64,000 bases of DNA from a virus (IMGVR_UViG_3300021387_000463:107001-171000), one strand, 5' to 3'. Positions 21,249 to 63,840 are shown, counted from the stretch's first letter. The notes: generated from the letters alone by a model not told the origin. Translations and numbers: made by a program.

Positions 21249-21809
21249 ATGGCAGTAGGTGTAATTATCGCAAGGCTTCAGCCAATACACAAGGGACACC
21301 TTGAGTTGGTCAGACAAGCTCTTAATGAGAATGACGAGGTTCTTATCCTTGTTGGTTCAGCAGACAAACTGAATAAGCGTAACCCAATTCCTATCGCAAT
21401 GCGTTTGGATTTGGCAAAGAGAGCAATAACTGAGGAGTTTGGTGAGGGCGCTGGCAAAGTTAAAGTAATGCCACTCAATGACCTTACAGATGAATCAGAT
21501 AATTCTCATGATTGGGGATTTTATCTCTACAGCCATATAGTTGGAATCACTAAGTCACTTGAATTTACCATTTATTATTCAGATGGATTTGAGATTATCA
21601 TGCAGTGGTTTCCTCCATTCATTACAAGAGACTTCGTTTCTTTTAAATTGAATGCTAGAGGTGCAATCCACAACAACTTGTCTGCAACAAAGGTAAGACA
21701 GATGATTCTCAAGGGTGATGAAAATGCTCTCGCAGAGGCAGTACCAACTTGTGTTGCTGAAAATGCGGTAATATTGAAACATTTCATTGAAGCATTTCAA
21801 GATGTATGA
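21249..21809 (+). CDS. nadM: nicotinamide/nicotinate mononucleotide adenylyltransferase (NadM-type NMNAT)
   Basis: ARLQPIHKGHLELV = (H/T)xGH nucleotidyltransferase motif in the archaeal/phage NMNAT context GRFQPxHKGH. Confidence 0.6.
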   Translation: MAVGVIIARLQPIHKGHLELVRQALNENDEVLILVGSADKLNKRNPIPIAMRLDLAKRAITEEFGEGAGKVKVMPLNDLTDESDNSHDWGFYLYSHIVGITKSLEFTIYYSDGFEIIMQWFPPFITRDFVSFKLNARGAIHNNLSATKVRQMILKGDENALAEAVPTCVAENAVILKHFIEAFQDV

Positions 21810-22024
21810 ATTATCAGTATGGAGAAGCGTTTTTGGAGATAACTTTCAAAGATGGCAATAAGGCACGAATTAAAAGGGATGCAATAACTGATATCTACTC
21901 ATACAAAGAAAATGGTGTTAGCATTGTAAAAGTATCCTTTGATAGAGGAAATAGTTCACATTATTATAGATTCGATGGAACTCTAGAAGAATTTGAACAA
22001 AATTCCAAGATTGTATATTTATAA
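21806..22024 (+). CDS. hypothetical protein (72 aa)
   Basis: ORF, ATGA overlap. Confidence 0.45.
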   Translation: MNYQYGEAFLEITFKDGNKARIKRDAITDIYSYKENGVSIVKVSFDRGNSSHYYRFDGTLEEFEQNSKIVYL

Positions 22025-22163
22025 TAGCTAGTTCCGTAGTACGATATATAAATTGGCAAGCGTATAACGTAGTTGTTCCTATAACGAACTCATAGCATAT
22101 TAGGAGGTTCAGAGAAACTTGTGTGGTGAAGAATCGGAAATCCGCAGACTAGCTTTTTTTCAT

Positions 22164-22237
22164 GTTGATGTAGCTCAGTAGGTTAGAGCACGTGACTGAT
22201 ACTCACGAGGTCAGGGGTTCAACTCCCTTCATCAACA
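22164..22237 (+). tRNA. tRNA-Ile(GAT)
   Basis: perfect acceptor gttgatg/catcaac; anticodon stem cgtga/tcacg with loop ctgatac; canonical D arm. Confidence 0.65.
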
Positions 22238-22780
22238 CAAAACATAATGGGCTTGAATGGTATAGAACGTTATGCGTCTGGTAAAGGACAAGCAGTGGGC
22301 ATACACTTCAAATAGCAAAAAAAACAAACGCAGAGAACGTAGATTCTCCTGCTTATGAGTACGCTATAGCTGCGTAAGCATGAGCCGAGAGGCTAGGCTC
22401 TTAGGAACAGAACATCCTAGCAAACTTTTTTTAGCTTCGTGCTAGATGGTGGAATCGGTGACTCTAGTCATCCCCCAAGTTTTCCTTGTTTTCTCAAAAT
22501 AAGGTGGCGGATTTTCGACAGCAATGTCAACTTTCCAATTTAAGCTTGTATAATCCTTTATGGGATGGTAATTGTGACGAGGGTTCGAATCCCTCCAGGT
22601 CCACTTAATAATCAGTCAGGGTTGGATGATGAAGTAAACTTTTACAGTAAAGTTATGCTATATTAGGATAAAAGTCATGTATTAATCTGTATAACATACA
22701 TGGAAGGGAATCTTTCATAAGTACATTGAAGAGGTTCGTGTAGCTGATTATTTTATAAAAGAAAAAAAGTTCTTTGAAAA

Positions 22781-22812
22781 TTTGGAAATCTCAAAAATTA
22801 TCTATATCTTTG
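22781..22812 (+). promoter_or_regulatory. Bacteroidetes-type promoter
   Basis: aaaTTTGgaaatctcaaaaattatctaTATCTTTGca. Confidence 0.6.
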
Positions 22813-22836
22813 CACTGTTAAACAAAACAATACATT

Positions 22837-23088
22837 ATGAGTAAGATATTAGAGAGCGAATTTAGAAAAGAGTTGTATAAGTCTCTTACTGAGGCTGGCT
22901 ACGAGAAGAAAGAAGCTCAAGCCATTGTAGGCAAGAAGTATTATGAGGCACTTAAAGTTGACCTTGTAGATAGAATGAAGAGACAGATTGCAAACATAGA
23001 AAGTGAGAATTCTGAGTTGGTACTCAGTGCAGAGGAATATAACAATGCTCTTACTGAGTTAGAAAAATTAAAAGAATTTGCAAAATGA
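22837..23088 (+). CDS. hypothetical coiled-coil protein (83 aa)
   Basis: ORF 25 nt after the promoter. Confidence 0.55.
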   Translation: MSKILESEFRKELYKSLTEAGYEKKEAQAIVGKKYYEALKVDLVDRMKRQIANIESENSELVLSAEEYNNALTELEKLKEFAK

Positions 23089-23332
23089 TGAAAAAAAGTT
23101 CCTAAAAAATTTGGAATTCTCGAAAATTATCTATATCTTTGCAAAGTGAAAAGAAATAAATGAGGAAACTAACAGCAAACATTTAAACATCAAACTGTAA
23201 ATTTGAACAACGTTTAAAAAGTTTCCGTTTTATTATATAACATAGCGGCAGAGTGAAACAGATTACACGCTAGGCTCATAACCTAGAAACACCAAGTGCG
23301 ACTCTTGCGTGCCGCCACTTGATTTGGAAGAT

Positions 23333-23617: not shown

Positions 23618-24440
23618 AACATTGTAGGCTTCGGCTGAAAATGAGGAGTTTGGCTAGCTTTCGTAGCCAAATGAAGGATAATCCAGTGATGGGACTAAAT
23701 GTGATGTGAAATTGACCATAGTAGCATTGCAGATATGTAGGGGCAACCCTATGTATTTCACTGAAAAGCATATGGCACGGTCTACGCTGGGGGTAACACC
23801 CTAGGCGTAGGTTCTCAAGGGCTGAATGTCTTTGAGTGAGTGGTAACACAATAGATTGCCATATGGAACTCGATGCAATAGTCACCAGTTGGCGTGTTGG
23901 GTTCAGTTATATGCTAGTCTCAAGTTGAAATGCTTGAGAACCGTAAGGCTGATAGTATGTAATAGCAATTGGACTTGTGGTGAGTCTTTGTAGGGAGGCG
24001 ATTTCGTGGGTCGTGCTCAAAAGGCACGAATGCGATGGGTCGCACCTCGTCTTCCAATGGTCGTGCAAATTTCCAAAATTTGATTTGAAATATGGTTCAA
24101 ATGTTTATTTAGCAAAAGTGTGCGACACTAGGCAGCTAAAATGCACTTATCCTTCTGCAATATGAAGGGGTTGGGGACTCGCAAGGAATCCAACAAGAGA
24201 GTAAAAGTACTCGTCTGAGTCAACAGGAGGCATCCTGTGAATCCGCAAGAGCTTGGCGAAGAACTGAAATCTATGATGCTGTACCGAAAGGTTTAAACTA
24301 GTAAGTGTTTGGTTGTTTTCGCAAAACCTCCGTGCATGGTGTCTACGGCTATCGTAAGGTAGCGTGTGAACAGCAACGTCCAACCGTTGTGAAATGACAT
24401 CTACAACAAGACAATGTTCTCAGTCTTTTGTTTTTACATA

Positions 24441-24564
24441 GGGAGTTAGCTTAATGGTCAGAGTAATTTTGTTGCGATTTAAGCTACAACACAGTCTCGA
24501 CTTCGGAACAGATTGATGCTTTAACTGATAATGAAAAAATGGTGGTTCGAGTCCATCACTCCCT
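24441..24564 (+). tRNA. oversized tRNA-like gene (124 nt)
   Basis: acceptor gggagtt/cactccc (6/7); T arm ggtgg/ttcgagt/ccatc; body contains ctgataa (Ile-type loop) and a UUCG hairpin. Confidence 0.3.
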
Positions 24565-24725
24565 GCGTACCGTTTTGGGGCACTTTTTGAGTAAACAAAG
24601 TGTTAAACTTTGGCACTAGATAGCTACTAGGTGTTATGGGTTGGAAAGTTTGAATCCCTTGGGGGTTTGTAGAATGTAATGTTTTTAACCAACTGTTTTT
24701 GATACGGCTTAATATTTAATTATAT

Positions 24726-27141: not shown

Positions 27142-27226
27142 GGGCATATGGCTGAGTGGTCGATAGCGGCAGTCTCTAAAACTGTTATGGCGAAAGTCAT
27201 CGTGGGTTCGAATCCTACTATGCTCA
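27142..27226 (+). tRNA. amber suppressor tRNA, anticodon CTA, type II (Ser/Leu/Tyr-like body)
   Basis: acceptor gggcata/tatgctc all paired; D arm tg-gctg-agtggtcgata-gcgg; anticodon stem gcagt/actgt with loop ctctaaa at the expected position; long variable arm; T arm gtggg/ttcgaat/cctac. Confidence 0.5.
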
Positions 27227-27454
27227 CTACGGCTGGTGTATCCATAGTGGATGCTGAAATAAGTGAGACAGCGCAAGCCATGTAAGAAGTGGCAGATGAA
27301 GCAGCAATGCGGTGCGAGGATTAGTCCCTTGCCCTAGTTCCTTGATGGTTAAGAGGATACCTTCATGGTTGATACAGGTAAACCTAATTTACTATTATGA
27401 TAGAATATCTCAAAAAATTAGAAGCAACGATGTGCAAGCATAAATGGGAGGATT

Positions 27455-28729: not shown

Positions 28730-29158
28730 ATGGCAAAAGAGAAAGTTACAATAAAGTATAAAACAGCTAATACATTTGCTGACATCTTCAATGATAAGAG
28801 TGGCACCTTCTATGAGGTGTTCTTAAAACCAACAAAGGGAAATACAGTTAAGAGATATTTGGCTATGGGAACAATAAGTTCTTATGGTGATAGAAGATGT
28901 GTATGCCAATGCTACTCAAAGGTTGGACGACCAGTTTTTAGTTGGTACAATGGCATAAAATCTTTTGAAGTCAATAAGGATGCTGAGAAAGGTTTAGAGA
29001 TAACATCTGCAAAGGTTCAGTGCGACTATCACCTTTACACGGCATATGTCTCAAGGGAAGATGCTTTTCATGCAGCCATGCATGGTCTTAAGTTACAGAA
29101 ACTTAAGATTAACAAGCAAATTATCAAGTTACAGAACGATTTATATTCAGAAGAATAA
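28730..29158 (+). CDS. hypothetical protein (142 aa)
   Basis: ORF. Confidence 0.5.
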   Translation: MAKEKVTIKYKTANTFADIFNDKSGTFYEVFLKPTKGNTVKRYLAMGTISSYGDRRCVCQCYSKVGRPVFSWYNGIKSFEVNKDAEKGLEITSAKVQCDYHLYTAYVSREDAFHAAMHGLKLQKLKINKQIIKLQNDLYSEE

Positions 29159-29649
29159 TGGAGATAGAAGAATTAGCAAAGAGAGTGGCAATAGCCTTAA
29201 TGGATAAGAACTATAAGATTGCTACTGCTGAAGAATGTACAGCTGGGTTGATTGGTGCTGCAATTGCAAGCCAAGACTATGCTCAGAGGTGGTACAAGGG
29301 TACAGTTGTGGCATACGATGAAACAATCGCTTGCAAGGTTCTTGATGTCCAAGACTATACCATTAAGAGAAATGACTTTGTTAGTCCTCAAGTGGTTAGT
29401 CAGATGGCTTTGACAACACTGTATAAGTTTGATGTTAACGTAGCCCTTGCTATCACTGGTTATGTAGATGGATATGGAAGCACGGATATTCCAGCTGGTG
29501 ATGTTCAAATATGTGTTGCTAGACTTGTCAACAAATCAGTGTCATTTAGCTATAAGAAGGTAAGAGTTAAGAACAAAGAGAGAGGTAAGAACATTGAGGA
29601 AGCAATCAAGGAGTCTCTTATCCTCATAATGGAAACAATAGTAGGGTAG
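29158..29649 (+). CDS. pncC: CinA C-terminal domain protein / NMN deamidase (PncC-like)
   Basis: KIATAEECTAGLIGAAIAS matches the conserved CinA_C block (..ATAESCTGGL..). Confidence 0.55.
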   Translation: MEIEELAKRVAIALMDKNYKIATAEECTAGLIGAAIASQDYAQRWYKGTVVAYDETIACKVLDVQDYTIKRNDFVSPQVVSQMALTTLYKFDVNVALAITGYVDGYGSTDIPAGDVQICVARLVNKSVSFSYKKVRVKNKERGKNIEEAIKESLILIMETIVG

Positions 29650-29651: not shown

Positions 29652-30035
29652 ATGGAAAAATGTCCGTTTTGTGAAATAGAAAAAAGAATTGATGAATCTA
29701 GAATCATTTATCAAGATTCGACTTGGATTGCGATATTAGACAATTATCCAGTGTCAGAAGGTCATACTCTCTTAATACCAAAGAGACACTGTAAAAGCTA
29801 TTTCGATTTAAATTTTATTGAACTTGAGAGTGTCGGTGTTACAATTGGTATTGTTAAGAGAATATTAGACACAAAGTATAAGCCAGATGGTTATAACATT
29901 GGAATAAATTGTGGCGAGGCTGCTGGTCAAACCGTTATGCATTGTCACATCCATATTATACCTCGTTATAATGGGGACTGTGAAAATCCTAGAGGTGGCG
30001 TAAGGAGAGTAATTCCAGAGAAACAGCATTACTAA
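29652..30035 (+). CDS. HIT-family hydrolase
   Basis: histidine triad HCHIHIIPR; SEGHTLLIPKRH. Confidence 0.6.
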   Translation: MEKCPFCEIEKRIDESRIIYQDSTWIAILDNYPVSEGHTLLIPKRHCKSYFDLNFIELESVGVTIGIVKRILDTKYKPDGYNIGINCGEAAGQTVMHCHIHIIPRYNGDCENPRGGVRRVIPEKQHY

Positions 30036-41513: not shown

Positions 41514-42077
41514 ATGGATAAGAAATTGGTTAACCAGCCTTGTTATGACAAAGAAGGCAATTTTATCGGATGGTTTAGCCGTTCAATGGCAGCAGCAATC
41601 TTCATCTATTGTAGAGACAAAGATGGCGATTGGTGCGTTCTTGCGTCAGAGCGAGGCGAGGAAGCTGCTGACTTTAGAGGTTTTTGGAATTGCACATGCG
41701 GTTACTTGGATTTTGGGGAAACCACCAAGGATTGCGCAATGAGGGAGCTGTATGAGGAAACTGGACTACTCATAGATGAAAAGCTAGTCAAGTTTGTGGC
41801 TTATGAGGATAGTCCAGAGGCGAATAAGCAGAATGTTACATTCCGTTTTGCAGCATTCATCGATGACGCAATTACAGACGAATTTACCTTCTCTAAAAAG
41901 CACAATGAGGGTAAGGAAGTAGGAGAAATCAAATGGATTAAGATATCAGACGTGGACAAATACATGTGGGCATTTAACCATGACAAAAGAATAAAAGAGA
42001 TTTTTGCAACTAGGGAAAAGAAACTTTCTTGGGTTGACAAAGTAAAACGTTTCATTGGCAAATTTCTTAAAAAATGA
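41514..42077 (+). CDS. Nudix hydrolase (ADP-ribose pyrophosphatase-like)
   Basis: Nudix box GYLDFGETTKDCAMRELYEETGL. Confidence 0.65.
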   Translation: MDKKLVNQPCYDKEGNFIGWFSRSMAAAIFIYCRDKDGDWCVLASERGEEAADFRGFWNCTCGYLDFGETTKDCAMRELYEETGLLIDEKLVKFVAYEDSPEANKQNVTFRFAAFIDDAITDEFTFSKKHNEGKEVGEIKWIKISDVDKYMWAFNHDKRIKEIFATREKKLSWVDKVKRFIGKFLKK

Positions 42078-42800: not shown

Positions 42801-43553
42801 ATGGCAAAGAAAAATATAGCAAAATCCCAAAGGATTGGGGTTACGGAAAACGGTGAGGTTGCTTTCCACTTGGAGGCATTTGATAACCTCTATGAAGGTA
42901 ATATAATCATTACCAAAAGATTAAGCAATGGCTTGATTGATAAACTTATAGAACATCAAGACAAGATAATACTCCATCTTTCCATAACTGGTATGGGTCA
43001 AAGTCGTATTGAGCCATTTGTACCAAAGGCAGAGGAAACATATAAGAAACTCATAGAATTGCTTGAGAAGGGTTTTCCAATTACTCACGTTGTTCTTAGA
43101 GTTGACCCAATAGTCCCCACCAATAAAGGATTAGAGACTGCCCTAGGTGTTATAACAGCCTTTAGTGGACTTGGCATCAAGAGACTTAGATTCTCCTTCC
43201 TAGACAACTATAAACACGTTAAGAAGCGTTTTAAGGAGGAAGGTATAGCAGAGCTTTATGGTGGAGAATTTCACGCTCCATTGGAATTAAGACAAGAATA
43301 TGCAAAAAAGATTGAAGAAGTTGCTCACGATGGTGGTTTTGAAACAGTAGAGGCTTGTGGAGAACCTGGAATTGAAAGTGTTTCTTGTCTTTCGCAGAGA
43401 GACGTAGATATATTGGGTTTAACGGATAAGATAACTCTTGAGGGTTCAGCAGAACAAAGAGAGGGTTGTGGATGTCCAGCCAATAAATCAGAATTGTTAA
43501 GAATTAGACCACACCAATGTGAGAACAAATGTCTATATTGTTATTGGAGGTAA
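42801..43553 (+). CDS. hypothetical protein with C-terminal Cys cluster (250 aa)
   Basis: EGCGCPANKSEL...CENKCLYCYW. Confidence 0.5.
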   Translation: MAKKNIAKSQRIGVTENGEVAFHLEAFDNLYEGNIIITKRLSNGLIDKLIEHQDKIILHLSITGMGQSRIEPFVPKAEETYKKLIELLEKGFPITHVVLRVDPIVPTNKGLETALGVITAFSGLGIKRLRFSFLDNYKHVKKRFKEEGIAELYGGEFHAPLELRQEYAKKIEEVAHDGGFETVEACGEPGIESVSCLSQRDVDILGLTDKITLEGSAEQREGCGCPANKSELLRIRPHQCENKCLYCYWR

Positions 43554-45514: not shown

Positions 45515-46048
45515 ATGACCAATTTTAAGATTATTGCTTGCATTAACCAAAAGAGGGTTTTAGGTAACGATGGTAAGCTATTGTATCACATTGGTAACGA
45601 CTTAGCCAATTTCAAACGTATGACAGTTGGCAATGTTGTAATCATGGGTAGAAAGACCTTCGAATCACTGCCAAATGGTGCGCCATTGAAGGACAGAATT
45701 AACATTATTATTACTAGTAATGAGGAGTATGGTGTTGACGCAAATTTTGAAAATGTGTACATCGTACACTCAGTGGAAGATGCAATTGAGTTATGCGATG
45801 CTTTCTTCTCAGATAAGGAAGTATTCGTTATTGGAGGTGAGAGCATTTATCGTCAGTTCATGGAGAAAGACCTTGTTAATGAAATGAGGTTGACTATCGT
45901 AAACGATGATGCTGATGGTAATGCTGTGTTTCCAGAGTATAATGAAGAGGATTGGTATGTGTACTACAAATCAATGGCTCAAGTTAGCTCATGGGAGGGT
46001 GTTGATAAATCATTCTATTTTGAAGTTCTATTGAAAAAGAAAGAATAA
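45515..46048 (+). CDS. folA: dihydrofolate reductase
   Basis: IIACINQKRVLGNDGKLLYHIGNDLANFKRMTVGNVVIMGRKTFESLP...VFVIGGESIY matches DHFR signature blocks. Confidence 0.75.
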   Translation: MTNFKIIACINQKRVLGNDGKLLYHIGNDLANFKRMTVGNVVIMGRKTFESLPNGAPLKDRINIIITSNEEYGVDANFENVYIVHSVEDAIELCDAFFSDKEVFVIGGESIYRQFMEKDLVNEMRLTIVNDDADGNAVFPEYNEEDWYVYYKSMAQVSSWEGVDKSFYFEVLLKKKE

Positions 46049-46688: not shown

Positions 46689-46721
46689 TTTTGGTTTAAT
46701 TAAAAAAATACTATATCTTTG
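46689..46721 (+). promoter_or_regulatory. Bacteroidetes-type promoter
   Basis: aTTTGgtttaattaaaaaaatacTATATCTTTGca. Confidence 0.55.
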
Positions 46722-46748
46722 CAAAAAATAATCAAACGTATATTAGAA

Positions 46749-48299
46749 ATGAATGACTCTAAAGAATTAAATGAGAAGAAAGAGGGTATCGTTGATACCA
46801 CTCCAAAGGGAGAAGAGCAGACAACTACTCCTAAAGTAGATAATAACTCTGAGGGTACTAAGGAAGTATCTGGTGAGATTGTCTCAGTTATTCTCGACAA
46901 GGAAGTTTCCGTCCGTTTCGATGACAAGGAAGGGGCTGTATTACCTTATGACAAATTTAAGGAGAAGCCTATGGTTGGTGACACCGTAACGGTACGTCTT
47001 GAAAAGAAGAACAATGATATGGTGGTAACTGACATCGTATCACATGAGAGACCCAATAAGGAGTCTGAAACATCTAATGAGGAAGATGATGTGGAAGAGG
47101 TTGAAGTAGAGACCGACCCCATCGATGATGAAATGGACTTAGCCTATCTGGACAAGGACTTTGTTCTTGAAACTATGTCCGTTCCTAGTGATACCCACAA
47201 CGAGTTTCGTTTGGTAGTTTACGTCATTCAGTTTGCAAGACGTAACGGCATCAAGTATGAATTTGACGATTACGGTAACGTATATCTTACAAAGGGTGAG
47301 CTTGCCGAAGGTGAGTATTATCCTTGTGTAACCTCTCACCTTGATAGTGTTCAGCATAAGCAGCAGCCTTACATCTTTGCTGGTGTTCCTCTTGACCTTA
47401 AGTGTGAACGCACTAAGGACAATGAGCATAAGGTCTTTGTAGATACCAAGGGACAAGACCGAATTGGTATCGGTGCTGACGATAAGGGCGGTGTATGTAT
47501 CTGTCTTTCAATGTTTGAACACCTTGAGAAGCTTAAGGCTTGTTTCTTCCTTTGTGAAGAGATAGGTTGCCTTGGTTCTAAGGAGCTTAACAAGGAGTGG
47601 TTCAAAGACGTTGGTTACTGTATCGGTTATGACTCTCCAGATTTGATTCGTGCTGCATGGTCATGCGCAGGTGTCAAGCTCTTCTCCTACGAGTTCTATG
47701 AGAAGTGGATGAAGCCAGTGTGTGATGAGTGGGGTCTTAAGGACTGTTTCTACTCAGAGCCTATCACTGACGTGATGGAGATTCGTAAGCAAGTTGGTGT
47801 TATGTGTATGAACTTTGGTAATGGTGGTTACAACGCTCACTCAGAGAGCGAGTACATCATTCTAGAGCACATGGACCACGCTTGTGGTATGGGTCTTGCT
47901 CTTATTGACCATATCGGTTGTACACGTCACTACTTGAAGCACACATCTTCAACTTATGGTACATCTAAGGGTACATACAAGAAAGAGGGTGGCTTCTATA
48001 TCCGCACTGATGTGGATGATACCAAGCAGTTAGAGAGTCTTGGTGACAACAAGCGTAGAGGTACAACCACATATTACGGTGGTAGCGGTTATAACTCTAA
48101 TCGTAGCACTGTTACCAAGGATGAACAGCTCAACTTTGAGATTGTTAAGTATATTGTCAATCGTTACGATGGACATATCTTGGCAATCAAGGACGAGGTG
48201 CTTGAGGCAATCAAGGGCATCTGTGAGAAGTCAGGTGTTGACTACTCATTGTTCGAGACAGAGGTGAGTGAGAAATTCAGTAATGATATTAAATTTTAA
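46749..48299 (+). CDS. M20/M28/M42-like metallopeptidase with acidic N-terminal domain
   Basis: IGIGADDKGGVCI, HSESEYIILEHMDHACGMGL; start placed after the -7 box. Confidence 0.45.
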   Translation: MNDSKELNEKKEGIVDTTPKGEEQTTTPKVDNNSEGTKEVSGEIVSVILDKEVSVRFDDKEGAVLPYDKFKEKPMVGDTVTVRLEKKNNDMVVTDIVSHERPNKESETSNEEDDVEEVEVETDPIDDEMDLAYLDKDFVLETMSVPSDTHNEFRLVVYVIQFARRNGIKYEFDDYGNVYLTKGELAEGEYYPCVTSHLDSVQHKQQPYIFAGVPLDLKCERTKDNEHKVFVDTKGQDRIGIGADDKGGVCICLSMFEHLEKLKACFFLCEEIGCLGSKELNKEWFKDVGYCIGYDSPDLIRAAWSCAGVKLFSYEFYEKWMKPVCDEWGLKDCFYSEPITDVMEIRKQVGVMCMNFGNGGYNAHSESEYIILEHMDHACGMGLALIDHIGCTRHYLKHTSSTYGTSKGTYKKEGGFYIRTDVDDTKQLESLGDNKRRGTTTYYGGSGYNSNRSTVTKDEQLNFEIVKYIVNRYDGHILAIKDEVLEAIKGICEKSGVDYSLFETEVSEKFSNDIKF

Positions 48300-51126: not shown

Positions 51127-53187
51127 ATGACTTACAACAAGAAACAAATGCAGCCTTTGATTGATAAGTATGCTATCAATCCTGAGACTAACAAGCTGTT
51201 TGCTAGTGTTTGTGAAATGTTTGACGGACAGCCAAACTATCAGATTTGGGCAGTAAAGATGGTTTTCTCCAAATCATTAAACATGGACCAGCTTGAAGCA
51301 ATTCACGAATGGGTCACTAAGAACCAAACCCTAGTGAAATCACTTGAGAAACAGAACATTGTATCTTATTCAACAAAGAATGCTATTTCTCAGTTATTCA
51401 ACGAAATGAATGGTCTTGATAACCTTTCAGTTATTAAAGATACAATCAGTCGCTTCAATACTGACCAGAGAAAGATGCTTACTAGCAGCTTGCTTCCAAG
51501 AGAGTATACTGCATTAGAGGGATATTCTAACCCTAACATTAAAAAGTGGGCTGACATCTTTAGAAAGTTCAACCGTCTTCCATTTGACCGTAAGAACAAG
51601 TTCTTCAGTAACTGTTCTAAGTTGAGAGACCTTAACAATTTGCAGAGTGCCATCGTTACTTGTCTTGAGACATCATACGAATGGAACAAGGAAGACCTTT
51701 TGGCATACGTAGCAAACGTGACAACTGACTGTGAGGTTGTGCTCGACAATGGTAACTTCGTTATCGTTCATGTTCCTTCATTCAAGTCAAGTAAACTTCT
51801 TTGTGGTAATGGACGTACCAAATGGTGTATCACTCGTGAAGAGAGCTACTTCCGTCAGTACGTGACTGACCAGAGCAATAGAGACCAGTACTTCTTGTTC
51901 GACTTTGGCCGTAAGGAAAGTGATGCATTCGCACACATCGGTTTCACAATGGAGAATGGACGTGGCTTCTACTGCGCTCAGACTTGTAACAACTCTAGTA
52001 TGGTAGGTGGTTACACACAGAATGGTGAGACCCTTAACATCAGCCAAGCACTTGAGAGAGCTGGTTGTAAGATGTCTCTCTTCTTACGTCTTAACGCTCT
52101 TGTGAACTACAAGTGGGAACTTGATTCTATTGTGAATCTCATTAAGAGCAAACCAAACGATTTCGCCATTGCTTATGAGAAAGATGGACGTTTGATTATC
52201 AACGTTCTTAACACTCAAGCAGTTAAGACCCTTATCGGTCACTCACTCATTAACAATAGCAATTTCATAGTTGACAACAATAACAAGGTGTACGTATTCA
52301 TTGACACCAATGTTAAGTATAACGATGATAGGGCACTTATCGCAATGCACTATCAGAAAGACCAATACGGTACTCTCTCATTGAAGAGAATGTGTGACCC
52401 ATTCAACACCGATATTACCAAGGCTGGTTATTTGTCAAAGGTTGGTATTACCACTGACAACTATCTCAACCGTGAGGCTATCGACCCACAAGTATTGCTT
52501 CACAAGCTTATCGATGAGAACGATGAGATTGGCGCATTGAAACTTCTTGAGAAAGAGGGTAAGGACTTTAACGTCAACTACGAGTTCAATCAGAGAATTC
52601 CTATTATCTCTGCTGTGAACAACAAGATGTACAACTTGTTCGAGAAGATTGTAAGCCATCCTAAGTTTGATTCTTCAATCGAGGACGGTTTCGGTGAGAC
52701 CCTTCTTGAGTCACTTATTTATCTCTATGGTAGTGACGAGATTTCAGCCTCTAAAGAGGAAGAGAAGTCTCTTAAGAGAATGATTACCGCAATCTTGAAG
52801 TCTGATACATACGACTTCAACGCGAAAGACCTTAACTCTGACACTGCAATCAACATTGCATGTGAATATCCAAAGATGCTGTGGATTGTTGAGGCTCTTG
52901 CATCTAAGAAGAGTGTTGACATCAACATTGTTAATGATTTTGAGTGTGCAGCCCTTGGTGACTGTATCCGTAATAAGAACCTTGAAGCATTGAAGATTAT
53001 CGGTAAGAGACCTGATGTTAAGGTTAGGGAAGAGGATAAGAAACTCGCTAAGACCTATGGCATCAACTTGGGTGACTACATCAAGCCTGATGAGAAGATT
53101 TTCGGTAGTTTCAAGTTCGAGGAAACTGAGGACGATGGTAAGACCACATCTAAGTCAGAAATGGAAATGGCTATGGCTGCTTCATAA
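51127..53187 (+). CDS. large hypothetical protein, paralog B (686 aa), C-terminal ankyrin-like repeats
   Basis: paralog of 48309-50837; own promoter at ~51040-51090. Confidence 0.65.
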   Translation: MTYNKKQMQPLIDKYAINPETNKLFASVCEMFDGQPNYQIWAVKMVFSKSLNMDQLEAIHEWVTKNQTLVKSLEKQNIVSYSTKNAISQLFNEMNGLDNLSVIKDTISRFNTDQRKMLTSSLLPREYTALEGYSNPNIKKWADIFRKFNRLPFDRKNKFFSNCSKLRDLNNLQSAIVTCLETSYEWNKEDLLAYVANVTTDCEVVLDNGNFVIVHVPSFKSSKLLCGNGRTKWCITREESYFRQYVTDQSNRDQYFLFDFGRKESDAFAHIGFTMENGRGFYCAQTCNNSSMVGGYTQNGETLNISQALERAGCKMSLFLRLNALVNYKWELDSIVNLIKSKPNDFAIAYEKDGRLIINVLNTQAVKTLIGHSLINNSNFIVDNNNKVYVFIDTNVKYNDDRALIAMHYQKDQYGTLSLKRMCDPFNTDITKAGYLSKVGITTDNYLNREAIDPQVLLHKLIDENDEIGALKLLEKEGKDFNVNYEFNQRIPIISAVNNKMYNLFEKIVSHPKFDSSIEDGFGETLLESLIYLYGSDEISASKEEEKSLKRMITAILKSDTYDFNAKDLNSDTAINIACEYPKMLWIVEALASKKSVDINIVNDFECAALGDCIRNKNLEALKIIGKRPDVKVREEDKKLAKTYGINLGDYIKPDEKIFGSFKFEETEDDGKTTSKSEMEMAMAAS

Positions 53188-57186: not shown

Positions 57187-58581
57187 ATGGAAATATTCAA
57201 AGACGAAAGAATAAAGAAAGTCTTAGCGAAGATTCAGAATGCCATTAAACTGACTGCCTTTGAGGGGCATGTTTATGTGGTTGGTGGTGCGGTGAGAGAC
57301 GCACTGTTGAACCTTCCAGTCAAGGACTTGGATTTCGTGGTAGAGATACCTAATGGTGGAGTAATGCTTGCCCATCTTCTTGCTTCAAAGGAGAAGTGTT
57401 ATGTGATGGGTAAGAATCCAGTAATATTCGAGACCTATGGTACTGCAAAGCTGAATCTCTTTAAGGATGAAGACCTCAAAGACTTTGACCTTGAATTCGT
57501 TCAGACTAGAAAGGAGCAGTATCACAAGGAGAGCAGAAACCCAGATACAGTGTTTGGTTCAATCGAGGAAGATGCAGCACGTAGGGACTTAACCATTAAC
57601 TCATTGTACTACAATGTTACTGATGGTAAGTTGTACGATTTCAACCAAGGTGTTGATGACTTGGTTAACCAAGTGATTAAGACCCCAACTGACCCAGATG
57701 TTATCTTTGACGATGACCCACTACGTATCTTGAGAGTTATCAGATTCTCTTGCAGATATGGCTGGGGTATCGAGAAGAACACTTGGTTGGGCATGGTTAA
57801 GAATGCACATCGTATCAAGATTATCTCACAAGAGAGAATCACTGATGAGATTTCCAAGATTATAACTGGTCCAAACGCTTCTGTTGGTATCCGCAAGATG
57901 TTGTTCTGTGGCATCTTGAATAGGGTAATGCCAGACATCTACGACTTAACCAACGCATATGAATCAAAGAATCCAATGCTTACCTCATTTGACCACACAA
58001 TGTTAGTTCTTGATAAGGTACAGCCTTATATTGAGAATAGACTTGCTGCATTGTTTCATGATGTAGGTAGAATCGCAACTGAGGGAAATAGGGGTATCTC
58101 TCAAGATTCATTCAGTGCTGATGTTGCTAGCTGTGACTTGAAAGCGATGAAATTCCCAAAGAATATTATCAATTCTGTTGAGAACGCAATCAAATATCAC
58201 AGATTCTTCAGAAACTACGCTGATGGCACTGTTCCACCAGACAAGAAGATAAGAAAGTTTATCAACGAGTGTGGTGACAACATTGGAAACGTGGTTGACT
58301 TGATGAATGCTAACAACTTGTATCAGACCTACGATAAGAAGAAGAGACAAGTATTGGATATTCTGAATAGAATTGAAGAGCTAGATGAGCTTGAAGAGGC
58401 TAAGAACGTTAAGCTGCCTATCGATGGAAAAGATTTAATGGCAGAATTTAATCTTAAAAGTGGCCCTCAGATTGGTATACTCATGGAACACTTGAAAGAG
58501 GCTTATTTCGAGAATCCGAAGATTACCAAGGAAGAGTGCTTCAAGTTGGTTGAGGATAAGATTAAAGTCTTGGCAGTCTAA
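57187..58581 (+). CDS. cca: CCA-adding enzyme (tRNA nucleotidyltransferase, class II) with HD domain
   Basis: VVGGAVRDALLNLPVKDLDFVV head-domain motif; RDLTINSLYY; HD motif LFHDVGR. Confidence 0.7.
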   Translation: MEIFKDERIKKVLAKIQNAIKLTAFEGHVYVVGGAVRDALLNLPVKDLDFVVEIPNGGVMLAHLLASKEKCYVMGKNPVIFETYGTAKLNLFKDEDLKDFDLEFVQTRKEQYHKESRNPDTVFGSIEEDAARRDLTINSLYYNVTDGKLYDFNQGVDDLVNQVIKTPTDPDVIFDDDPLRILRVIRFSCRYGWGIEKNTWLGMVKNAHRIKIISQERITDEISKIITGPNASVGIRKMLFCGILNRVMPDIYDLTNAYESKNPMLTSFDHTMLVLDKVQPYIENRLAALFHDVGRIATEGNRGISQDSFSADVASCDLKAMKFPKNIINSVENAIKYHRFFRNYADGTVPPDKKIRKFINECGDNIGNVVDLMNANNLYQTYDKKKRQVLDILNRIEELDELEEAKNVKLPIDGKDLMAEFNLKSGPQIGILMEHLKEAYFENPKITKEECFKLVEDKIKVLAV

Positions 58582-58733: not shown

Positions 58734-58988
58734 ATGGGAACATTATGTAAAAATTGTCCTGTAAGGAATTCACATAAGGAAAATGGTCAACCGTGTACCG
58801 TTGCTTTTGCAATGAGGTACGGCAATAGTTGTGTCAATCTTGACATAACAGAACAGCTATTCAACAAAGAATTAGAAGAACTGTCCAAGAAAAAGGAAGA
58901 GGACAAAAAGAAAAAGACTGAGACCAAGAAGCCTAGAACAACAAAGAAGAAAGAAACGGAAAAAGTAGAAATTTTAAAAACAGAATAA
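58734..58988 (+). CDS. small Cys/Lys-rich protein (84 aa)
   Basis: ORF after the promoter at ~58690-58725. Confidence 0.45.
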   Translation: MGTLCKNCPVRNSHKENGQPCTVAFAMRYGNSCVNLDITEQLFNKELEELSKKKEEDKKKKTETKKPRTTKKKETEKVEILKTE

Positions 58989-58992
58989 ACAT

Positions 58993-59568
58993 ATGGGAAG
59001 AAAAATTTTAATTATCGTTGATGGTCAGTATGACTTTCTTGAGGGTGGTGCTCTTGCAGTAGAAGGTGGTAAAGATGCTATGACCAATCTCACCGAGTTC
59101 ATTGAGAAGCATTACAAGGAGTATGATGGCATATTCTTAACTGCTGATTGGCATCCAATCACTCACTGTTCATTCAAGGATAATGGTGGTATCTGGCCAA
59201 CTCACTGCGTACAGTTCTCACATGGTGCTGCAATATATCAGCCAATTCTTGATGTGTTAGACGATTTAAAGGTTGACTACGATGTTCTTACGAAGGGCTG
59301 TGACGAAGACCATGAGGAGTATTCTATCTTCAAGAATGTTACCTCAGAGGCATATCTCAAAGCCATGAACAAACACAACGAGATTGGTGTTGTTGACATT
59401 TGTGGTATCGCTGGAGACTACTGTGTGCTTGATACCATCAAGGATGGGCTTATGGAATTTCCGAATGCCGAGTTCCATGTTATCAAGGAGTGTGTTGCAT
59501 CAATCGATGGTGGCGCAACATTGAACAAGTTTATTGACGATAACGAAAGGGTTTTATGTCACGAATAG
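58993..59568 (+). CDS. pncA: isochorismatase-family hydrolase, nicotinamidase (PncA)-like
   Basis: ILIIVDGQYDF, catalytic Cys context DICGIAGDYCVLDT. Confidence 0.55.
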   Translation: MGRKILIIVDGQYDFLEGGALAVEGGKDAMTNLTEFIEKHYKEYDGIFLTADWHPITHCSFKDNGGIWPTHCVQFSHGAAIYQPILDVLDDLKVDYDVLTKGCDEDHEEYSIFKNVTSEAYLKAMNKHNEIGVVDICGIAGDYCVLDTIKDGLMEFPNAEFHVIKECVASIDGGATLNKFIDDNERVLCHE

Positions 59569-59804
59569 ATATGGACATTAAGGAATATCAAGGCATGAGG
59601 AACAAGATTAAAAACTTGGAATCTGCCTTGAATTCCGTTTCTATGGAGGCTGCTACCAACAAAGAGATTATCGAGAAAGTTAAGGCTCTAGTAGTAGACC
59701 TTGAGGGGGAAGGATTTTTTAACCGCTTGTTTAGATGGAAAAGTGTGATTGAACCTTTTAAGGAGTTGTTAGAGACACATGGGCAGATTCAAGAGGAAAA
59801 GTAA
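59556..59804 (+). CDS. hypothetical protein (82 aa)
   Basis: ORF. Confidence 0.4.
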   Translation: MSRIDMDIKEYQGMRNKIKNLESALNSVSMEAATNKEIIEKVKALVVDLEGEGFFNRLFRWKSVIEPFKELLETHGQIQEEK

Positions 59805-60459
59805 AAAGCGATACCATATACCCAAAAACGCAGTAGAGCAATATATTGAAAAGGTTAGAAAGCCAAAAAGCAAGATTGTAGTTTGGACTTCACCTATAAA
59901 AGACAATAGGAGATTGGTTGGCTTATTCAGAAAACTATTTTTGGTACTTAAGAAAAACAAGAAATTCGGAAACTTCATAGAATGTTTTAAGCCAATTGAG
60001 AAAAAAACGCAATACGGTACTGCTGATAGTGTACGAACATGCTTGGGTGGCAACTTTAATTATAGCCAAGCACGTATTCTGATTGGAAGCAACTTTTTTG
60101 TACCAATTGAAAGAAATATGTTGACACCAAATGGTATCGCAAATACACCAATTGGAAATGTGATATGGCTTGACTACTTGCTTGAAAAGAATTGGCATCA
60201 TAAAAGAGATACTGATTTAGGTAAACGAGACATAGCTGAAATGTATCTGAGGGATGCGTATGAGGAAAAAGGCATCACAAAGTCTAAAGTTCCAAACGAA
60301 ATGGCGTTTTCAATGCGAATGGGGACAATACTAGCCTCAATATTCTATTTGATAATTACCTTTATGCTCTATTGGTTTATATCGCCATTGGCTGCTTTGA
60401 TATACAGCTTGATTACGGCTTTTATAATTGTTTACTTCCTCTTCAGTTTCCCAAATTAA
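59779..60459 (+). CDS. basic protein with C-terminal TM helices (226 aa)
   Basis: ORF. Confidence 0.45.
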   Translation: MGRFKRKSKKRYHIPKNAVEQYIEKVRKPKSKIVVWTSPIKDNRRLVGLFRKLFLVLKKNKKFGNFIECFKPIEKKTQYGTADSVRTCLGGNFNYSQARILIGSNFFVPIERNMLTPNGIANTPIGNVIWLDYLLEKNWHHKRDTDLGKRDIAEMYLRDAYEEKGITKSKVPNEMAFSMRMGTILASIFYLIITFMLYWFISPLAALIYSLITAFIIVYFLFSFPN

Positions 60460-60515
60460 TTAACAACATTTAACACCATCCATTTGGTGAGTTCAAAAAT
60501 ATTTCGTATCTTTAC

Positions 60516-60992
60516 ATGGAGAAATTGACGATAGATGTATTCAGACATTTTAGGTTTTTCTTGAAAAAGAATAAACAGTATGACTTGTTCATGCGAAATT
60601 TCAGAAGACAGCCATTTCAGATTTATCACGTATTTGATTCGAAGATTCCGAATTACATACAGATAATGATGAAAGATTCTGTAGATGGGATTGGAAATCG
60701 ATACTTCAAGGAATTCGGTGCAATGCATCTTATCTTTAGGTCATTTAATTGGTCTGGAGATTGTTGCACAACCAAAACAAATTCGAAGCATTGGGCTACG
60801 GTTGGTCTTAAATGGGCGTTATATTGCATAAGGCATAACATCGACATATGCACAGATGAACGGCTTGGGAGACTTATAGAGTATTGGAATTCTAATGGAT
60901 GGATTAATATTAGCAAGCTATCCTTTGAAGATAAAATAATAGTAAATCAGTTAAAACGAAAATATAATAATTATGGGGTTACAAGTGTATGA
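60516..60992 (+). CDS. hypothetical protein (158 aa)
   Basis: promoter-like tcgtatctttaca upstream. Confidence 0.5.
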   Translation: MEKLTIDVFRHFRFFLKKNKQYDLFMRNFRRQPFQIYHVFDSKIPNYIQIMMKDSVDGIGNRYFKEFGAMHLIFRSFNWSGDCCTTKTNSKHWATVGLKWALYCIRHNIDICTDERLGRLIEYWNSNGWINISKLSFEDKIIVNQLKRKYNNYGVTSV

Positions 60993-61908
60993 TAAGATTG
61001 ATACAATCTATAAAAGATACCAGTTTGATGGTAAGGATTGTCCAAATAAGGATTGGTTAAAGTTCAAGAATAAGATTATTCTTGGTGAGTTCTCAAACAA
61101 GGAGGCTGAGTATCTGTTCAACTGTCTTTGGGAAGCATATAGTAAGTTAGACGGAACAAACTCTAAAATTGCATTCTTCCCCTCAACTAGTGAGATTCGT
61201 GTTGAGGGTAAGACCGAGAAAGCTCAGTCACAGCATGGACAGTTCGAAATGCTTGAGAAGATTGGTGAGCGTATCAAGCCACAGCTTTGCGCAATGTTCC
61301 CAAAGGAGTCAGCAAGGTTTGCTCCAGTTAAAGAGGGAAATAAGGTTCAGTATTATGCAACTAGGGTTGAGTATGCAACGGCATTTAATCCTATAGTTGA
61401 TTTTAAAAAGGCAGAACCTACTGCCAATGGATTGTATGGTGTTCAGCTAGAGGAAGTTCCTATATACATCTACGGTGAGTATTTCGGTACTGGTATTCAG
61501 AAGTATGGTTCTCGCTACATTCAGAATGGTAACGGTTTCCGTGTATTCGACATTAAACAGCAAGGTTGGTGGTTGCCAAAGGAGAATCGTGATGCAATGT
61601 GCAAAGGTCTTGGTCTTGAGACTGTGCCTTTCTTGGGTGTTATGACCTTGCGTGACATTGAGGATATGGTACGTAAGGGCTTCACTACCAAGTTTGAGGG
61701 AGCTGCTGACCCAACAATGCTTGAGGAGGGTATTGTAGCACGTCCCATCATTCCTCTTTACAGTGGCAATGGTAGTTCCACTCGTGTCATCGTTAAGGTG
61801 AAGTACTGTGATTACGTTGAGTATGATGCTGTACGCAAACAATTCTCTGATAAGGAGTTCACTGAGTTCGACACTTGGTATCATGAGAATATCGAAAGTA
61901 AAAAATAA
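60973..61908 (+). CDS. RNA ligase (Rnl2-like ATP-dependent nucleotidyltransferase)
   Basis: motif I KLDGTN (adenylylation lysine, cf. T4 Rnl2 KIHGTN); motif IV-like EEGIVARP; motif V-like RVIVKVKY. Confidence 0.55.
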   Translation: MGLQVYDKIDTIYKRYQFDGKDCPNKDWLKFKNKIILGEFSNKEAEYLFNCLWEAYSKLDGTNSKIAFFPSTSEIRVEGKTEKAQSQHGQFEMLEKIGERIKPQLCAMFPKESARFAPVKEGNKVQYYATRVEYATAFNPIVDFKKAEPTANGLYGVQLEEVPIYIYGEYFGTGIQKYGSRYIQNGNGFRVFDIKQQGWWLPKENRDAMCKGLGLETVPFLGVMTLRDIEDMVRKGFTTKFEGAADPTMLEEGIVARPIIPLYSGNGSSTRVIVKVKYCDYVEYDAVRKQFSDKEFTEFDTWYHENIESKK

Positions 61909-61911
61909 GAT

Positions 61912-62181
61912 ATGAGAGAGTTTACAAGAATTACATTGAGGTTGTTGATGTGTCTTTTCCTACTTGTAGGATGTGGTGCTAACATCTACTATTTGTCTGA
62001 AGTTACTGATGACAATGATTACGCTAGTTATCGGAGAAAAGCTAAGACACGTCACAGTGTTACCTATGATAGTAATGGCTACAATGAATATCAGCAGCCA
62101 CAATCTATCATAGAGTATGATACCCTCAAGGTAGACTTAACTGAGGATTATCCAATACAACTTAGAGAATTTCATTACTAA
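61912..62181 (+). CDS. small secreted/lipoprotein (89 aa)
   Basis: signal peptide LLMCLFLLVGCG. Confidence 0.45.
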   Translation: MREFTRITLRLLMCLFLLVGCGANIYYLSEVTDDNDYASYRRKAKTRHSVTYDSNGYNEYQQPQSIIEYDTLKVDLTEDYPIQLREFHY

Positions 62182-62639
62182 TGGGCGAAGTTATTGCAAA
62201 ATTGCGTGATAAGGAAGTAACTATGTACTCCAAATTTAACATTGGAGATTATGTGAAAGTGGTGAATACTGGACATCAGTATTCATCATATAACACAGCC
62301 TTCGAGTTCTTTTGGGGTAACACAGAAAGATTCTATCTTCCTTATAGTGTTGGTGAATATGAGAATGAAAGCGACTTTCAAGCAGCAATGGCAAGAATAC
62401 CGCAACGTTGGAAAGTCATTAACATGGCTGTTCATGACTTCTCACCAGACGTTATACTCTATCATATAAGAAGTGAAGAAGGTAAAAACTGTGTTGTGAA
62501 TGATGGGGCTATTGAGCTTATAGATTTCCACCATAGAAACAGAGAACATGTTAGCAAAATCATGATTTATCAATTACCTGCCAATGGTAGGGTCATGAAA
62601 CATAAATGGACAGAAAAATTATATAAAATAATAAAATAA
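62181..62639 (+). CDS. hypothetical protein (152 aa)
   Basis: ORF, TAATGG overlap. Confidence 0.5.
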   Translation: MGEVIAKLRDKEVTMYSKFNIGDYVKVVNTGHQYSSYNTAFEFFWGNTERFYLPYSVGEYENESDFQAAMARIPQRWKVINMAVHDFSPDVILYHIRSEEGKNCVVNDGAIELIDFHHRNREHVSKIMIYQLPANGRVMKHKWTEKLYKIIK

Positions 62640-62646
62640 CAGAATT

Positions 62647-63840
62647 ATGATTTATAGTATACTCGATTCAGACCTCTATAAATTTACGATGTCTAATGCT
62701 TATTTTCAGTTGTATCCTGATGCTGAAGGTACGTTTGCTTTTAATGACCGTAACAATGAGGTTTATGACAAGAAGTTCTTGGAAATGCTTCAATTAGAGT
62801 TCGCTCGTCTTTGTGAACTTAAGTTGACAACGGAAGAGTACATGTATGTGTCTCAGATTCGTTTTTTAGCAACCAACTACACTGAGTGGTTGAAGAACTT
62901 TAAGTTTGAGTTTGACAAGATTAAGTTCTGGCTCGATGACGAGGGACATCTTCACATTGAGGTAACTGACAAGATGTATAAGGTAACTCTTTACGAAGTA
63001 CCTATCCTTGCCACAGTTGCCGAGTGTCGTAACAAGTGGCTTGGTGTACACATTGATAATGCAAGGGTGATTGAAATCCTCGATAAGAAGATTGACTTTG
63101 CCAATGAGCATCAGTTGTATTTCTCTGAATTCGGTACAAGACGTAGAGCTTCTGCTGCAAGTCATGACCTCATTGTAAGACGTTTGAAGGAGCGTTGCCC
63201 AATCTATTGCGTTGGTACATCCAATGTGTATTTGGCAATGAAGTATAACATGATGCCTAGTGGAACTTGCGCACATGAGTGGATTATGTTCCACGCTGGT
63301 ATTGGCGGTTTTAAGACTGCTAACCTCACAGCCCTTAACGATTGGATTAAGGTGTATCAAGGTGACTTGGGTATTTCGTTGATTGATACCTATACCACAG
63401 CTTCATATCTCCACACACTTACGCTTAAGCAAGCTAAGTTGCTTGATGGCTTCCGTCAAGACAGTGGTGATGAATACCGCATCGGTAACATGATTATCGA
63501 TAAGCTGCATGAAATGCGCATCGACCCAACAAGCAAGACCATTGTCTTCAGCAATGCGCTTAACTTTGAGAAGTATGCTGAGATTGCTCGTTACTTTAAG
63601 GGACGCATCAAGGTATCCGCTGGTATTGGTACAAACCTTACTTGTGACCTTGGTATTGATGGCTACAAGCCAGCCAATATCGTGATGAAACTCGCTAAAT
63701 GCCGTTACAGTCCTCGTGATTTCTGGGAGTATGTCATCAAGATTTCCGATGACCTTGGAAAGCACATGGGTCGTAAAGACCTATTCGACATTGCTGCCAA
63801 GGAGTTGCACTTTGAAGAGCTTGGTGTTAAAGTAAATTAA
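62647..63840 (+). CDS. pncB: nicotinate phosphoribosyltransferase (NAPRTase, PncB-like)
   Basis: N-terminal ILDSDLYKFTM and C-terminal SAGIGTNLTCD are NAPRTase family hallmarks. Confidence 0.6.
   Translation: MIYSILDSDLYKFTMSNAYFQLYPDAEGTFAFNDRNNEVYDKKFLEMLQLEFARLCELKLTTEEYMYVSQIRFLATNYTEWLKNFKFEFDKIKFWLDDEGHLHIEVTDKMYKVTLYEVPILATVAECRNKWLGVHIDNARVIEILDKKIDFANEHQLYFSEFGTRRRASAASHDLIVRRLKERCPIYCVGTSNVYLAMKYNMMPSGTCAHEWIMFHAGIGGFKTANLTALNDWIKVYQGDLGISLIDTYTTASYLHTLTLKQAKLLDGFRQDSGDEYRIGNMIIDKLHEMRIDPTSKTIVFSNALNFEKYAEIARYFKGRIKVSAGIGTNLTCDLGIDGYKPANIVMKLAKCRYSPRDFWEYVIKISDDLGKHMGRKDLFDIAAKELHFEELGVKVN

Follow-up and report, generated by a model that had tools for sequence, protein, structure and literature searches.

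Depletion of nicotinamide adenine dinucleotide (NAD+) is a common bacterial strategy against phages. Three phage routes that restore NAD+ have been proven experimentally and none of them passes through nicotinate: NARP1 consists of Adps and Namat and NARP3 of PnuC and NadR (PMC13464706), and NARP2, from Vibrio phage KVP40, combines Nampt with a bifunctional Nmnat-Nudix protein and counters NAD+ depletion (bioRxiv 10.1101/2024.02.11.579819). The comparative surveys of 2021 and 2022 described only NadV, NadM and NadR. An in silico study of gut jumbo phages (Li et al., Microbiome 2024; PMC11662467) reported clusters of pncB, nadD and nadE, and phage pncA as well. Here we analyse IMGVR_UViG_3300021387_000463:107001-171000, a stretch of viral DNA of 64,000 nucleotides (hereafter the window). 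Of the five enzymes that make up a deamidated (Preiss-Handler) route of NAD+ salvage it probably encodes four, namely the nicotinamidase PncA, the nicotinate phosphoribosyltransferase PncB, an adenylyltransferase of the NadM/archaeal type and a Nudix hydrolase; the fifth, the NAD synthetase NadE, would lie upstream of it.

The finding is a dispersed instance of a gene set that had already been described computationally. With the gut jumbo phages of Li et al. the window phage shares both the type of sample and the pathway steps, but its genes are spread over about 42 kb (about 75 kb if NadE is counted) instead of being clustered, its adenylyltransferase is of the archaeal/NadM and not the NadD type, a Nudix gene is the constant companion of the set, and PncA and PncB lie within a tRNA-repair block with NADAR. 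NARP2 resembles the proposed route in that it starts from nicotinamide and uses a phosphoribosyltransferase (PRTase) dependent on phosphoribosyl pyrophosphate (PRPP), together with a NadM-type adenylyltransferase and a Nudix domain. However, these last two activities, fused in NARP2, are encoded in the window by separate genes 20 kb apart, Nampt/NadV was not found in the window, and the route would run via nicotinate and nicotinate mononucleotide (NaMN), and would thus need NadE. NARP1 and NARP3 have the same proposed purpose, the rebuilding of NAD+ during infection, but neither a Prs-like Adps nor Namat, PnuC or NadR was found among the open reading frames (ORFs) of the window that were scanned. 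With respect to the bacterial pyridine nucleotide cycle (PncA, PncB, NadD, NadE and PncC), the phage PncA, PncB and NadE are ordinary family members, the window PncB being 64-67% identical to Bacteroidales proteins, whereas the adenylyltransferase is NadM-type and not NadD, and the CinA-fold protein of the window lacks the PncC catalytic dyad. A further parallel is the Francisella route from NaMN through nicotinamide mononucleotide (NMN) to NAD by NadM and NadE* (Sorci et al. 2009, as presented in PMC7824862), in which a NadM-type adenylyltransferase is likewise paired with a NadE-family enzyme after PncB; the phage NadE could amidate either NaMN or nicotinate adenine dinucleotide (NaAD).

A preliminary description of the window had proposed a dispersed but complete NAD+ salvage set of five genes: the four just named and a CinA/PncC-type NMN deamidase. 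All five ORFs are indeed present on the + strand, at exactly the coordinates it gave, and each belongs to the superfamily it named (Table 1). Our profile searches employed Pfam and NCBIfam with their curated cut-offs, about 45 of the window ORFs being scanned with Pfam, and they bear out the PncB, PncA, NMNAT-type and Nudix families. These four genes can be considered real members of a set, linked as they are by clustering in other phages; neither the CinA/PncC assignment nor the completeness of the set survived closer analysis, as detailed below.

Table 1. Positions of the genes discussed, in the window and, where stated, in the collinear relative IMGVR_UViG_3300011989_000257 (412.5 kb)
Feature	Position	Strand	Basis or remark
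PncA, predicted nicotinamidase (nicotinamide to nicotinate + NH3)	58993..59568	+	motifs, PDB sequence matches
PncB, predicted class-I nicotinate phosphoribosyltransferase (nicotinate + PRPP to NaMN)	62647..63840	+	NCBIfam/Pfam
Stand-alone adenylyltransferase, predicted NadM/archaeal-type, NMN/NaMN	21249..21809	+	motifs, fold
Nudix hydrolase, probably ADP-ribose/NAD-related type	41514..42077	+	Nudix box, fold
CinA-fold protein, outside the pathway	29158..29649	+	PF02464; Glu26 for Ser nucleophile, Ala58 for Lys
Relative: NadE	309.5 kb		gene order collinear with window
Relative: NMNAT	277.6 kb		
Relative: Nudix	260.1 kb		
Relative: PncA	240.8 kb		
Relative: PncB	235.8 kb		
Co-directional string u84, PncA, u82, u226, u158, RNA ligase, u89, u152, PncB	58734..63840	+	gaps <=56 nt, several overlaps
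CCA-adding tRNA nucleotidyltransferase (context)	57187..58581	+	PF01743, PF12627, PF13735; conserved upstream neighbour of PncA
RNA ligase between PncA and PncB (context)	60973..61908	+	PF09414, 58 bits; position kept in syntenic block
HinT-like HIT protein	29652-30035		HCHIH motif, residues 97-101; downstream of CinA-like gene
tmRNA	22249-22604		tag AENVDSPAYEYAIAA
tRNA with CUA anticodon (amber suppressor-like)	27142-27227		
DHFR	45515-46048		
DUF1848 protein	42801-43553		
Endonuclease V-like protein	18007-18669		
Ankyrin-repeat protein	51127-53187		686 aa
526-aa protein	46719-48299		

The family identity of PncB (397 amino acids, aa) is secure. It scores 404.6 bits with NF003704 (cut-off 379) and 378.3 bits with TIGR01514 (cut-off 269.55), and it has both of the NAPRTase Pfam domains (PF17767 at the N-terminus, 96 bits; PF04095, 158 bits). 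With scores above curated cut-offs for the nicotinate-type enzyme, the reservation attached to the original NAPRTase claim, that the protein could be quinolinate-specific, falls away, and a nicotinate PRTase activity is predicted. His210, in an AHEW motif and invariant across four phage PncBs, we take to be the phospho-histidine, after Salmonella PncB. The nearest cellular homologs came from an alignment-based scan of contigs (a single-protein scan with PncB gave none); they are from rumen Bacteroidales metagenome-assembled genomes, have 64-67% identity and are flanked by no phage genes, and the next ones, from Bacteroides and Alistipes, have 48-51%. At the same locus the closest relatives carry a NAPRTase of 439-446 aa that is only 30-33% identical to the window PncB. 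In the two closest relatives the PRTase in this position (439 aa, 32% identity) still exceeds the TIGR01514 cut-off, and the neighbouring genes are mostly 62-98% identical to those of the window, two small ORFs having 43-57%. Since so divergent a PRTase sits amid such similar neighbours, we conclude that the window-type, Bacteroidales-like PncB, which occurs in 3 IMG/VR contigs, has replaced an older phage PncB in place, which in turn argues for selection on the NAPRTase function at this locus.

For PncA, the Pfam isochorismatase-fold match (PF00857) is 38.9 bits, and the PDB sequence matches are more specific: eight of the nine are named nicotinamidase or pyrazinamidase, the exception being the weakest, and the top one is Pyrococcus horikoshii PncA (1ILW, E 6.5e-25), with whose catalytic triad Asp10, Lys101 and Cys144 align. 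The metal site is also kept (Asp52 and His54 in a DWHP motif, His71 in THCVQ), and such an Asp-His-His site sets nicotinamidases apart from other isochorismatase-fold hydrolases. With triad, metal site and PDB matches all in agreement, the suggestion that this isochorismatase-like protein might not be a nicotinamidase can be set aside. PncA adjoins PncB or is near it in every relative examined. The PncA proteins of the two closest relatives are 82-88% identical to that of the window, whereas the one from the relative with a window-type PncB has only 47% identity, a pattern that looks like a mosaic complementary to that of PncB.

The adenylyltransferase, proposed initially as an NMNAT, has both of the motifs of the HIGH nucleotidyltransferase (NTase) family (PF01467, 32.9 bits): His14 and His17 of H-x-G-H and Ser145, Thr147 and Arg150 of S-x-T-x-x-R are invariant among 28 family members. 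The NMNAT sequence profiles score far above those of PPAT (56 versus 27 bits). Its AlphaFold2 (AF2) model (pLDDT 88.4) is nearest to archaeal NMNAT/NadM structures; the best Foldseek matches in the PDB are the M. thermoautotrophicum NMNAT 4YP5 (E 4.6e-10, TM 0.70/0.77) and NadM 2QJO (TMq 0.76), with overall TM values of 0.70-0.78, and PPAT comes next in the ranking (E 2e-8). Its homologs include the NMNAT that lies in the gene cluster of the cultured jumbo phage Phosso (hhalign 96% over 151 columns) and gp237 of Atu_ph07. Given the context of a cassette with PncB and NadE, its substrate would be NaMN, or else NMN made by NadE.

The Nudix protein likewise is what it had been called, a real Nudix hydrolase (PF00293, 52 bits). 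The Nudix box, Gly63-Leu85 (GX5EX7REUXEEXGU), is intact, with Gly63, Glu69, Arg77, Glu78, Glu81, Glu82 and Gly84 invariant in a conserved jumbo-phage family of 275 clusters; homologs occur in the Prevotella Lak megaphages. Pro101, 16 residues past the box, is nearly invariant, and a downstream proline serves as a heuristic sign of the ADP-ribose (ADPR) type. The AF2 model (pLDDT 89.3) has 2FML, the NrtR Nudix domain with ADPR (3GZ8) and RenU as its nearest folds, at TM values of only 0.54-0.63. Matches of the window protein to NadM-Nudix profiles are weak (E 9e-5); for the Nudix orthologs in the cassettes described below the best matches are NadM-Nudix and NrtR models. Homologs adjoin the NTase and are near PncB in the contig MT835470 (45% identity), in Phosso (E 9e-9) and in Atu_ph07. 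The enzyme is probably of the ADP-ribose/NAD-related type.

What ties these four genes together is the arrangement of their homologs in other phages. The Sinorhizobium jumbo phage Phosso has NadE, PncB, a MutT-like Nudix, NMNAT and a 'hydrolase', which is a PncA homolog, together on one strand. In Agrobacterium phage Atu_ph07, where NadE was not looked for, the Nudix (gp238), the NTase (gp237) and a PncA homolog (gp236) are adjacent and PncB is 3 kb away. The human-gut contig MT835470 has the tight co-directional string PncA - PncB - NadE (PF02540, 119 bits) - AAA ATPase - NTase - Nudix, in which PncB is 50% and PncA 42% identical to the window proteins. A NadE-anchored scan of IMG/VR gave 169 sites, of which 80 were kept; PncA, PncB, NadE, NTase and Nudix occur together in 68 of these loci, in exactly that order in 46. 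The NTase of the gut cassettes was considered as an ortholog of the window enzyme and rejected, being NadD-type. As the window adenylyltransferase is of the archaeal/NadM type, the adenylylation step would be filled by different lineages in different phages. Because the homologs cluster in other phages, and a 412-kb relative keeps the gene order of the window, we conclude that the four window genes appear to form a real set, grouped beyond chance, of which NadE would be the fifth member.

Since PncA and PncB deliver NaMN, the route cannot do without an NAD synthetase; the Pfam scans revealed no PRTase in the window other than the nicotinate-type one. A strain contig with 91-96% identical DNA encodes a NadE of 301 aa (TIGR00552, 133.8 bits versus a cut-off of 63.65), which precedes the first complete gene of the window by 9.4 kb, and NadE is also found in three relatives with a window-type PncB. 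Allowing for a 2.1-kb insertion, the predicted position of NadE is 10.3-11.2 kb before the window start, and on this synteny the source genome very probably encodes it there. None of NadE, NadV, Prs, NadR and PnuC was found in the 10 kb downstream of the window, and the source contigs were not among the 15 members listed for the NadE cluster, which has 29. A NadE probe made from E. coli and B. subtilis sequences was too narrow; it found 15 IMG/VR contigs, none of them related, and was replaced by the phage-anchored probes. Several members of the NadE cluster are named 'nicotinamide-nucleotide amidase' by the Joint Genome Institute (JGI), which looks like a mis-annotation.

The chemistry of the proposed route is modelled on the pyridine nucleotide cycle as established in bacteria. 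PncA would convert nicotinamide, the base freed by NAD-cleaving enzymes, to nicotinate; PncB would join this to PRPP, with ATP, to make NaMN; the NadM/archaeal-type adenylyltransferase would turn NaMN into NaAD; and an ammonia-type NadE would complete NAD+, with the host NadE serving if the phage has none. Alternatively, the order could be that of Francisella, with NadE making NMN first and the NadM-type enzyme finishing. The Nudix enzyme would most likely split ADP-ribose or a related dinucleotide into AMP and ribose-5-phosphate, both clearing a cleavage product and feeding the PRPP synthesis of the host. The benefit to the phage would be that NAD+ is sustained during infection, including against NAD-depleting defences, and by analogy with NARP1-3 it is plausible that the purpose is resistance to Thoeris, DSR or SIR2 systems. 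The analysis establishes to which families the proteins belong, their catalytic residues and folds, and how the genes cluster in other phages; what the adenylyltransferase and the Nudix enzyme act on, the NadE of the source genome and the advantage to the phage are inferences.

The CinA-fold protein has no place in this scheme. It is certainly a member of its family (PF02464, 99 bits; TIGR00199, 76.5 bits versus a cut-off of 68.9), but its motif is A-E-E-C-T-A-G instead of the A-E-S-C-T-G-G of real NMN deamidases. The catalytic dyad of PncC has been defined by mutagenesis as a serine (Ser29 in E. coli, Ser31 in A. tumefaciens) and a lysine (Lys61, Lys63), with the phosphate held by Tyr56 and Arg142; the Ser-to-Ala, Lys-to-Gln and Lys-to-Ala mutants are inactive, although the E. 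coli S29A and K61Q proteins still bind NMN (PMC5384747, PMC8231969). In the 47-member clade of the window protein, found on contigs that include some of 235-413 kb, 45 members have Glu at the nucleophile position and the other 2 have Gln, and the general-base column is Ala in 40, Ile in 4, Leu in 2 and Val in 1. The phosphate binders, by contrast, are kept: the column of Tyr53 has Tyr in 43 and Phe in 4, and that of Arg142 has Arg in 36 and Lys in 8. In a search of 1.84 billion representatives, the nearest of the 50%-identity representatives have the nucleophile replaced by E, Q, H, A or C, and the canonical ESCTGG with Y-x4-K reappears only farther out. A CinA-like gene is in none of the 80 cassette loci, and it is missing from the syntenic position of one relative that has PncA and PncB. 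Because both dyad residues are replaced throughout the clade and the gene never occurs in a cassette, we conclude that the protein is not an NMN deamidase and takes no part in the salvage route, contrary to what had been proposed; it may instead be a non-catalytic nucleotide binder or an enzyme of altered chemistry. Its gene is translationally coupled to an upstream ORF of 142 aa (28730-29158; about 130-140 aa, and conserved, in distant relatives) that has no match in PHROGs, Pfam or NCBIfam. The HIT protein encoded downstream was considered as a partner and rejected: HIT is present at a locus without CinA, and CinA without HIT at three loci.

Several observations weigh against a phage-encoded deamidated route. 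No NadE was found in the window itself, either as a PF02540 match among the scanned ORFs or by tblastn with the E. coli and Phosso sequences, so that the set is not complete there; nor did Pfam reveal NadV/NAMPT, Prs (ribose-phosphate pyrophosphokinase), NadR or PnuC among the same ORFs. The source scaffold with 100% identity was read only to one gene short of the expected NadE position, and the NadE scan, which relied on exact peptide words, did not recover the two closest IMG/VR relatives. The sole NCBIfam match of PncA, the nicotinamidase PRK11609, is below its curated cut-off (78.6 versus 174 bits), as are the top matches of the adenylyltransferase, the archaeal NMNAT models PRK01153 (56.3 versus 127) and TIGR01527 (51.4 versus 181.2). 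In the literature we found no experimental work on the deamidated route in phages. The remaining points are those that would be expected if the four genes simply acted separately, with the Nudix protein doing house-cleaning or decapping, the NTase adenylating some other target and PncA and PncB alone being linked. Distances of 17-20 kb separate the genes in the window, and their surroundings are unrelated, which gives no support to co-regulation. The folds of Dcp2, RppH and YmfB are nearly level with the top matches of the Nudix model, so that its substrate may be a different one, just as PPAT is close to the NTase fold. Moreover, the window-type adenylyltransferase, with 858 clusters and at least 108 IMG/VR sites, many of them in gut phages of about 185 kb, is far commoner than the window-type PncB, and in the 80 IMG/VR loci examined no salvage gene lies closer to it than 10 kb. 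Because it is so much more widespread, the adenylyltransferase may have a role independent of PncA and PncB, perhaps on mononucleotides made by the host. Nevertheless, homologs of the window-type Nudix and NTase adjoin each other and PncA/PncB in both Phosso and Atu_ph07, the Nudix gene also belongs to the MT835470 cassette, and the NTase is well above PPAT in its preference for NMNAT profiles; four unconnected genes thus seem to us an improbable explanation. The self-sufficient five-enzyme set of the preliminary description, in which CinA/PncC would turn NMN into NaMN, is considerably harder to maintain. It could appeal to the CinA domain scores, above the cut-offs of both Pfam and TIGR00199, and to the JGI annotation of some homologs as PncC-family amidohydrolases, but the dyad is replaced in all 47 clade members, Ser and Lys mutants of the E. 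coli and A. tumefaciens PncC are inactive, the gene is absent from every cassette, and NMN deamidation would in any case still require the NadE that is not in the window; we consider it very improbable.

A different possibility, and one that is compatible with the salvage route, is that PncA and PncB serve mainly in phage RNA repair or in NAD-consuming housekeeping, recycling the nicotinamide released by NAD-using repair or by ADP-ribosyl processing. The block CCA enzyme - PncA - RNA ligase - PncB - (NADAR) is kept in nine IMG/VR loci on eight jumbo-phage contigs, the NADAR gene (TIGR02464, 138 bits) being two genes past PncB, about 270-780 bases beyond the window end. The roles described for NADAR proteins are those of an anti-DarT factor and of an enzyme that processes ADP-ribose. 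An RtcB gene is found upstream of the window and a second RNA ligase downstream, and the window itself has 43 tRNA genes and a tmRNA gene (tRNA/tmRNA region, 1254-40235). Elsewhere, a CCA enzyme gene adjoins four of the IMG/VR cassettes and a HAD_SAK_2 RNA-repair gene is 1.5 kb from the Nudix gene of MT835470. However, most of the gut cassettes have no RNA-repair neighbours, the scanned ORFs yielded neither KptA/Tpt1 nor any other repair enzyme that consumes NAD (a KptA/Tpt1 link to the block was accordingly dropped), and RNA ligases of family PF09414 are not known to use NAD+. Comparative genomics has tied NADAR and RNA repair to an NAD+/ADPr network in jumbo phages (PMC9503650), which favours a repair function; on balance we regard it as possible but rather unlikely to be the main role of PncA and PncB. 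Of the other ORFs around these genes, u152, u226, u158 and u89 in the interval between PncA and PncB, d114 and the neighbours of the Nudix gene gave no matches in PHROGs, Pfam or NCBIfam.

The window is a piece of a jumbo phage genome that measures about 400 kb and comes from metagenomes of gut or rumen, as identical scaffolds and collinear IMG/VR relatives of 317-412 kb indicate. Two scaffolds encode an identical PncB protein, one of 412,362 bp in ENA and the other, of 83 kb, from sample SHIW14-1, and a 100-kb scaffold of that sample is 100% identical to the first 10,685 bases of the window; among GenBank phages, megablast with the PncA-PncB region found no near-identical DNA. Coding is on the + strand throughout, with a GC content of about 0.37. 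The PncB homologs, and the Nudix homologs in Prevotella Lak megaphages, make Bacteroidales the likely host. A 410,106-bp sequence filed as 'uncultured Firmicutes bacterium RUG343' (ONIZ01000001.1) encodes phage-like PncA and PncB, and the IMG/VR jumbo-phage contig IMGVR_UViG_2799112330_000002 is also 410,106 bp long; the former is probably a mis-binned phage genome. On relatives' contigs the approximately 10 kb upstream of the window has genes for tyrosyl-tRNA synthetase, NadE, radical SAM, the RtcB RNA ligase, SSB and TelA, which extend the theme of translation and RNA repair. Two of the Rfam tRNA matches, 16167-16293 and 24440-24565, are unusually long and may contain insertions. Among the tRNA genes there are also HNH and DUF559 endonuclease-like ORFs (1525-2400, 4617-5600 and 7447-8169); because the two strain contigs used for comparison either diverge from the window or have no match to it where the first two lie, these ORFs are suggested to be mobile homing elements. 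The 526-aa protein has weak S1/CSD-TOTE and M20/M28 peptidase matches.

What is new here is modest: the constant presence of a Nudix gene with the set and the wide occurrence of the five-gene cassette, the replacement of PncB in place, and a phage clade of CinA-like proteins devoid of the deamidase dyad. This last point carries a caution, namely that a match to the CinA domain is no ground for calling a phage protein an NMN deamidase. One could go further and suppose that the phage CinA proteins are a radiation of former NMN deamidases, which now, as non-catalytic sponges or sensors, bind a nucleotide derived from pyridine or ADP-ribose, or else perform a new chemistry, and, separately, that PncA-PncB-NadE-NTase-Nudix is a fourth, deamidated NAD+ pathway that defeats NADase defences in Bacteroidales phages; this proposal is speculative and, in our estimation, unlikely. 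Nonetheless, the window, the cassette in at least 68 IMG/VR contigs and the two cultured jumbo phages together point to a fourth phage route to NAD+. This nicotinate route would be common in the Bacteroidales phages of gut and rumen and would be under selection there, a host-like PncB having been swapped in, and Phosso, Atu_ph07 and similar cultured phages offer a means of testing it.

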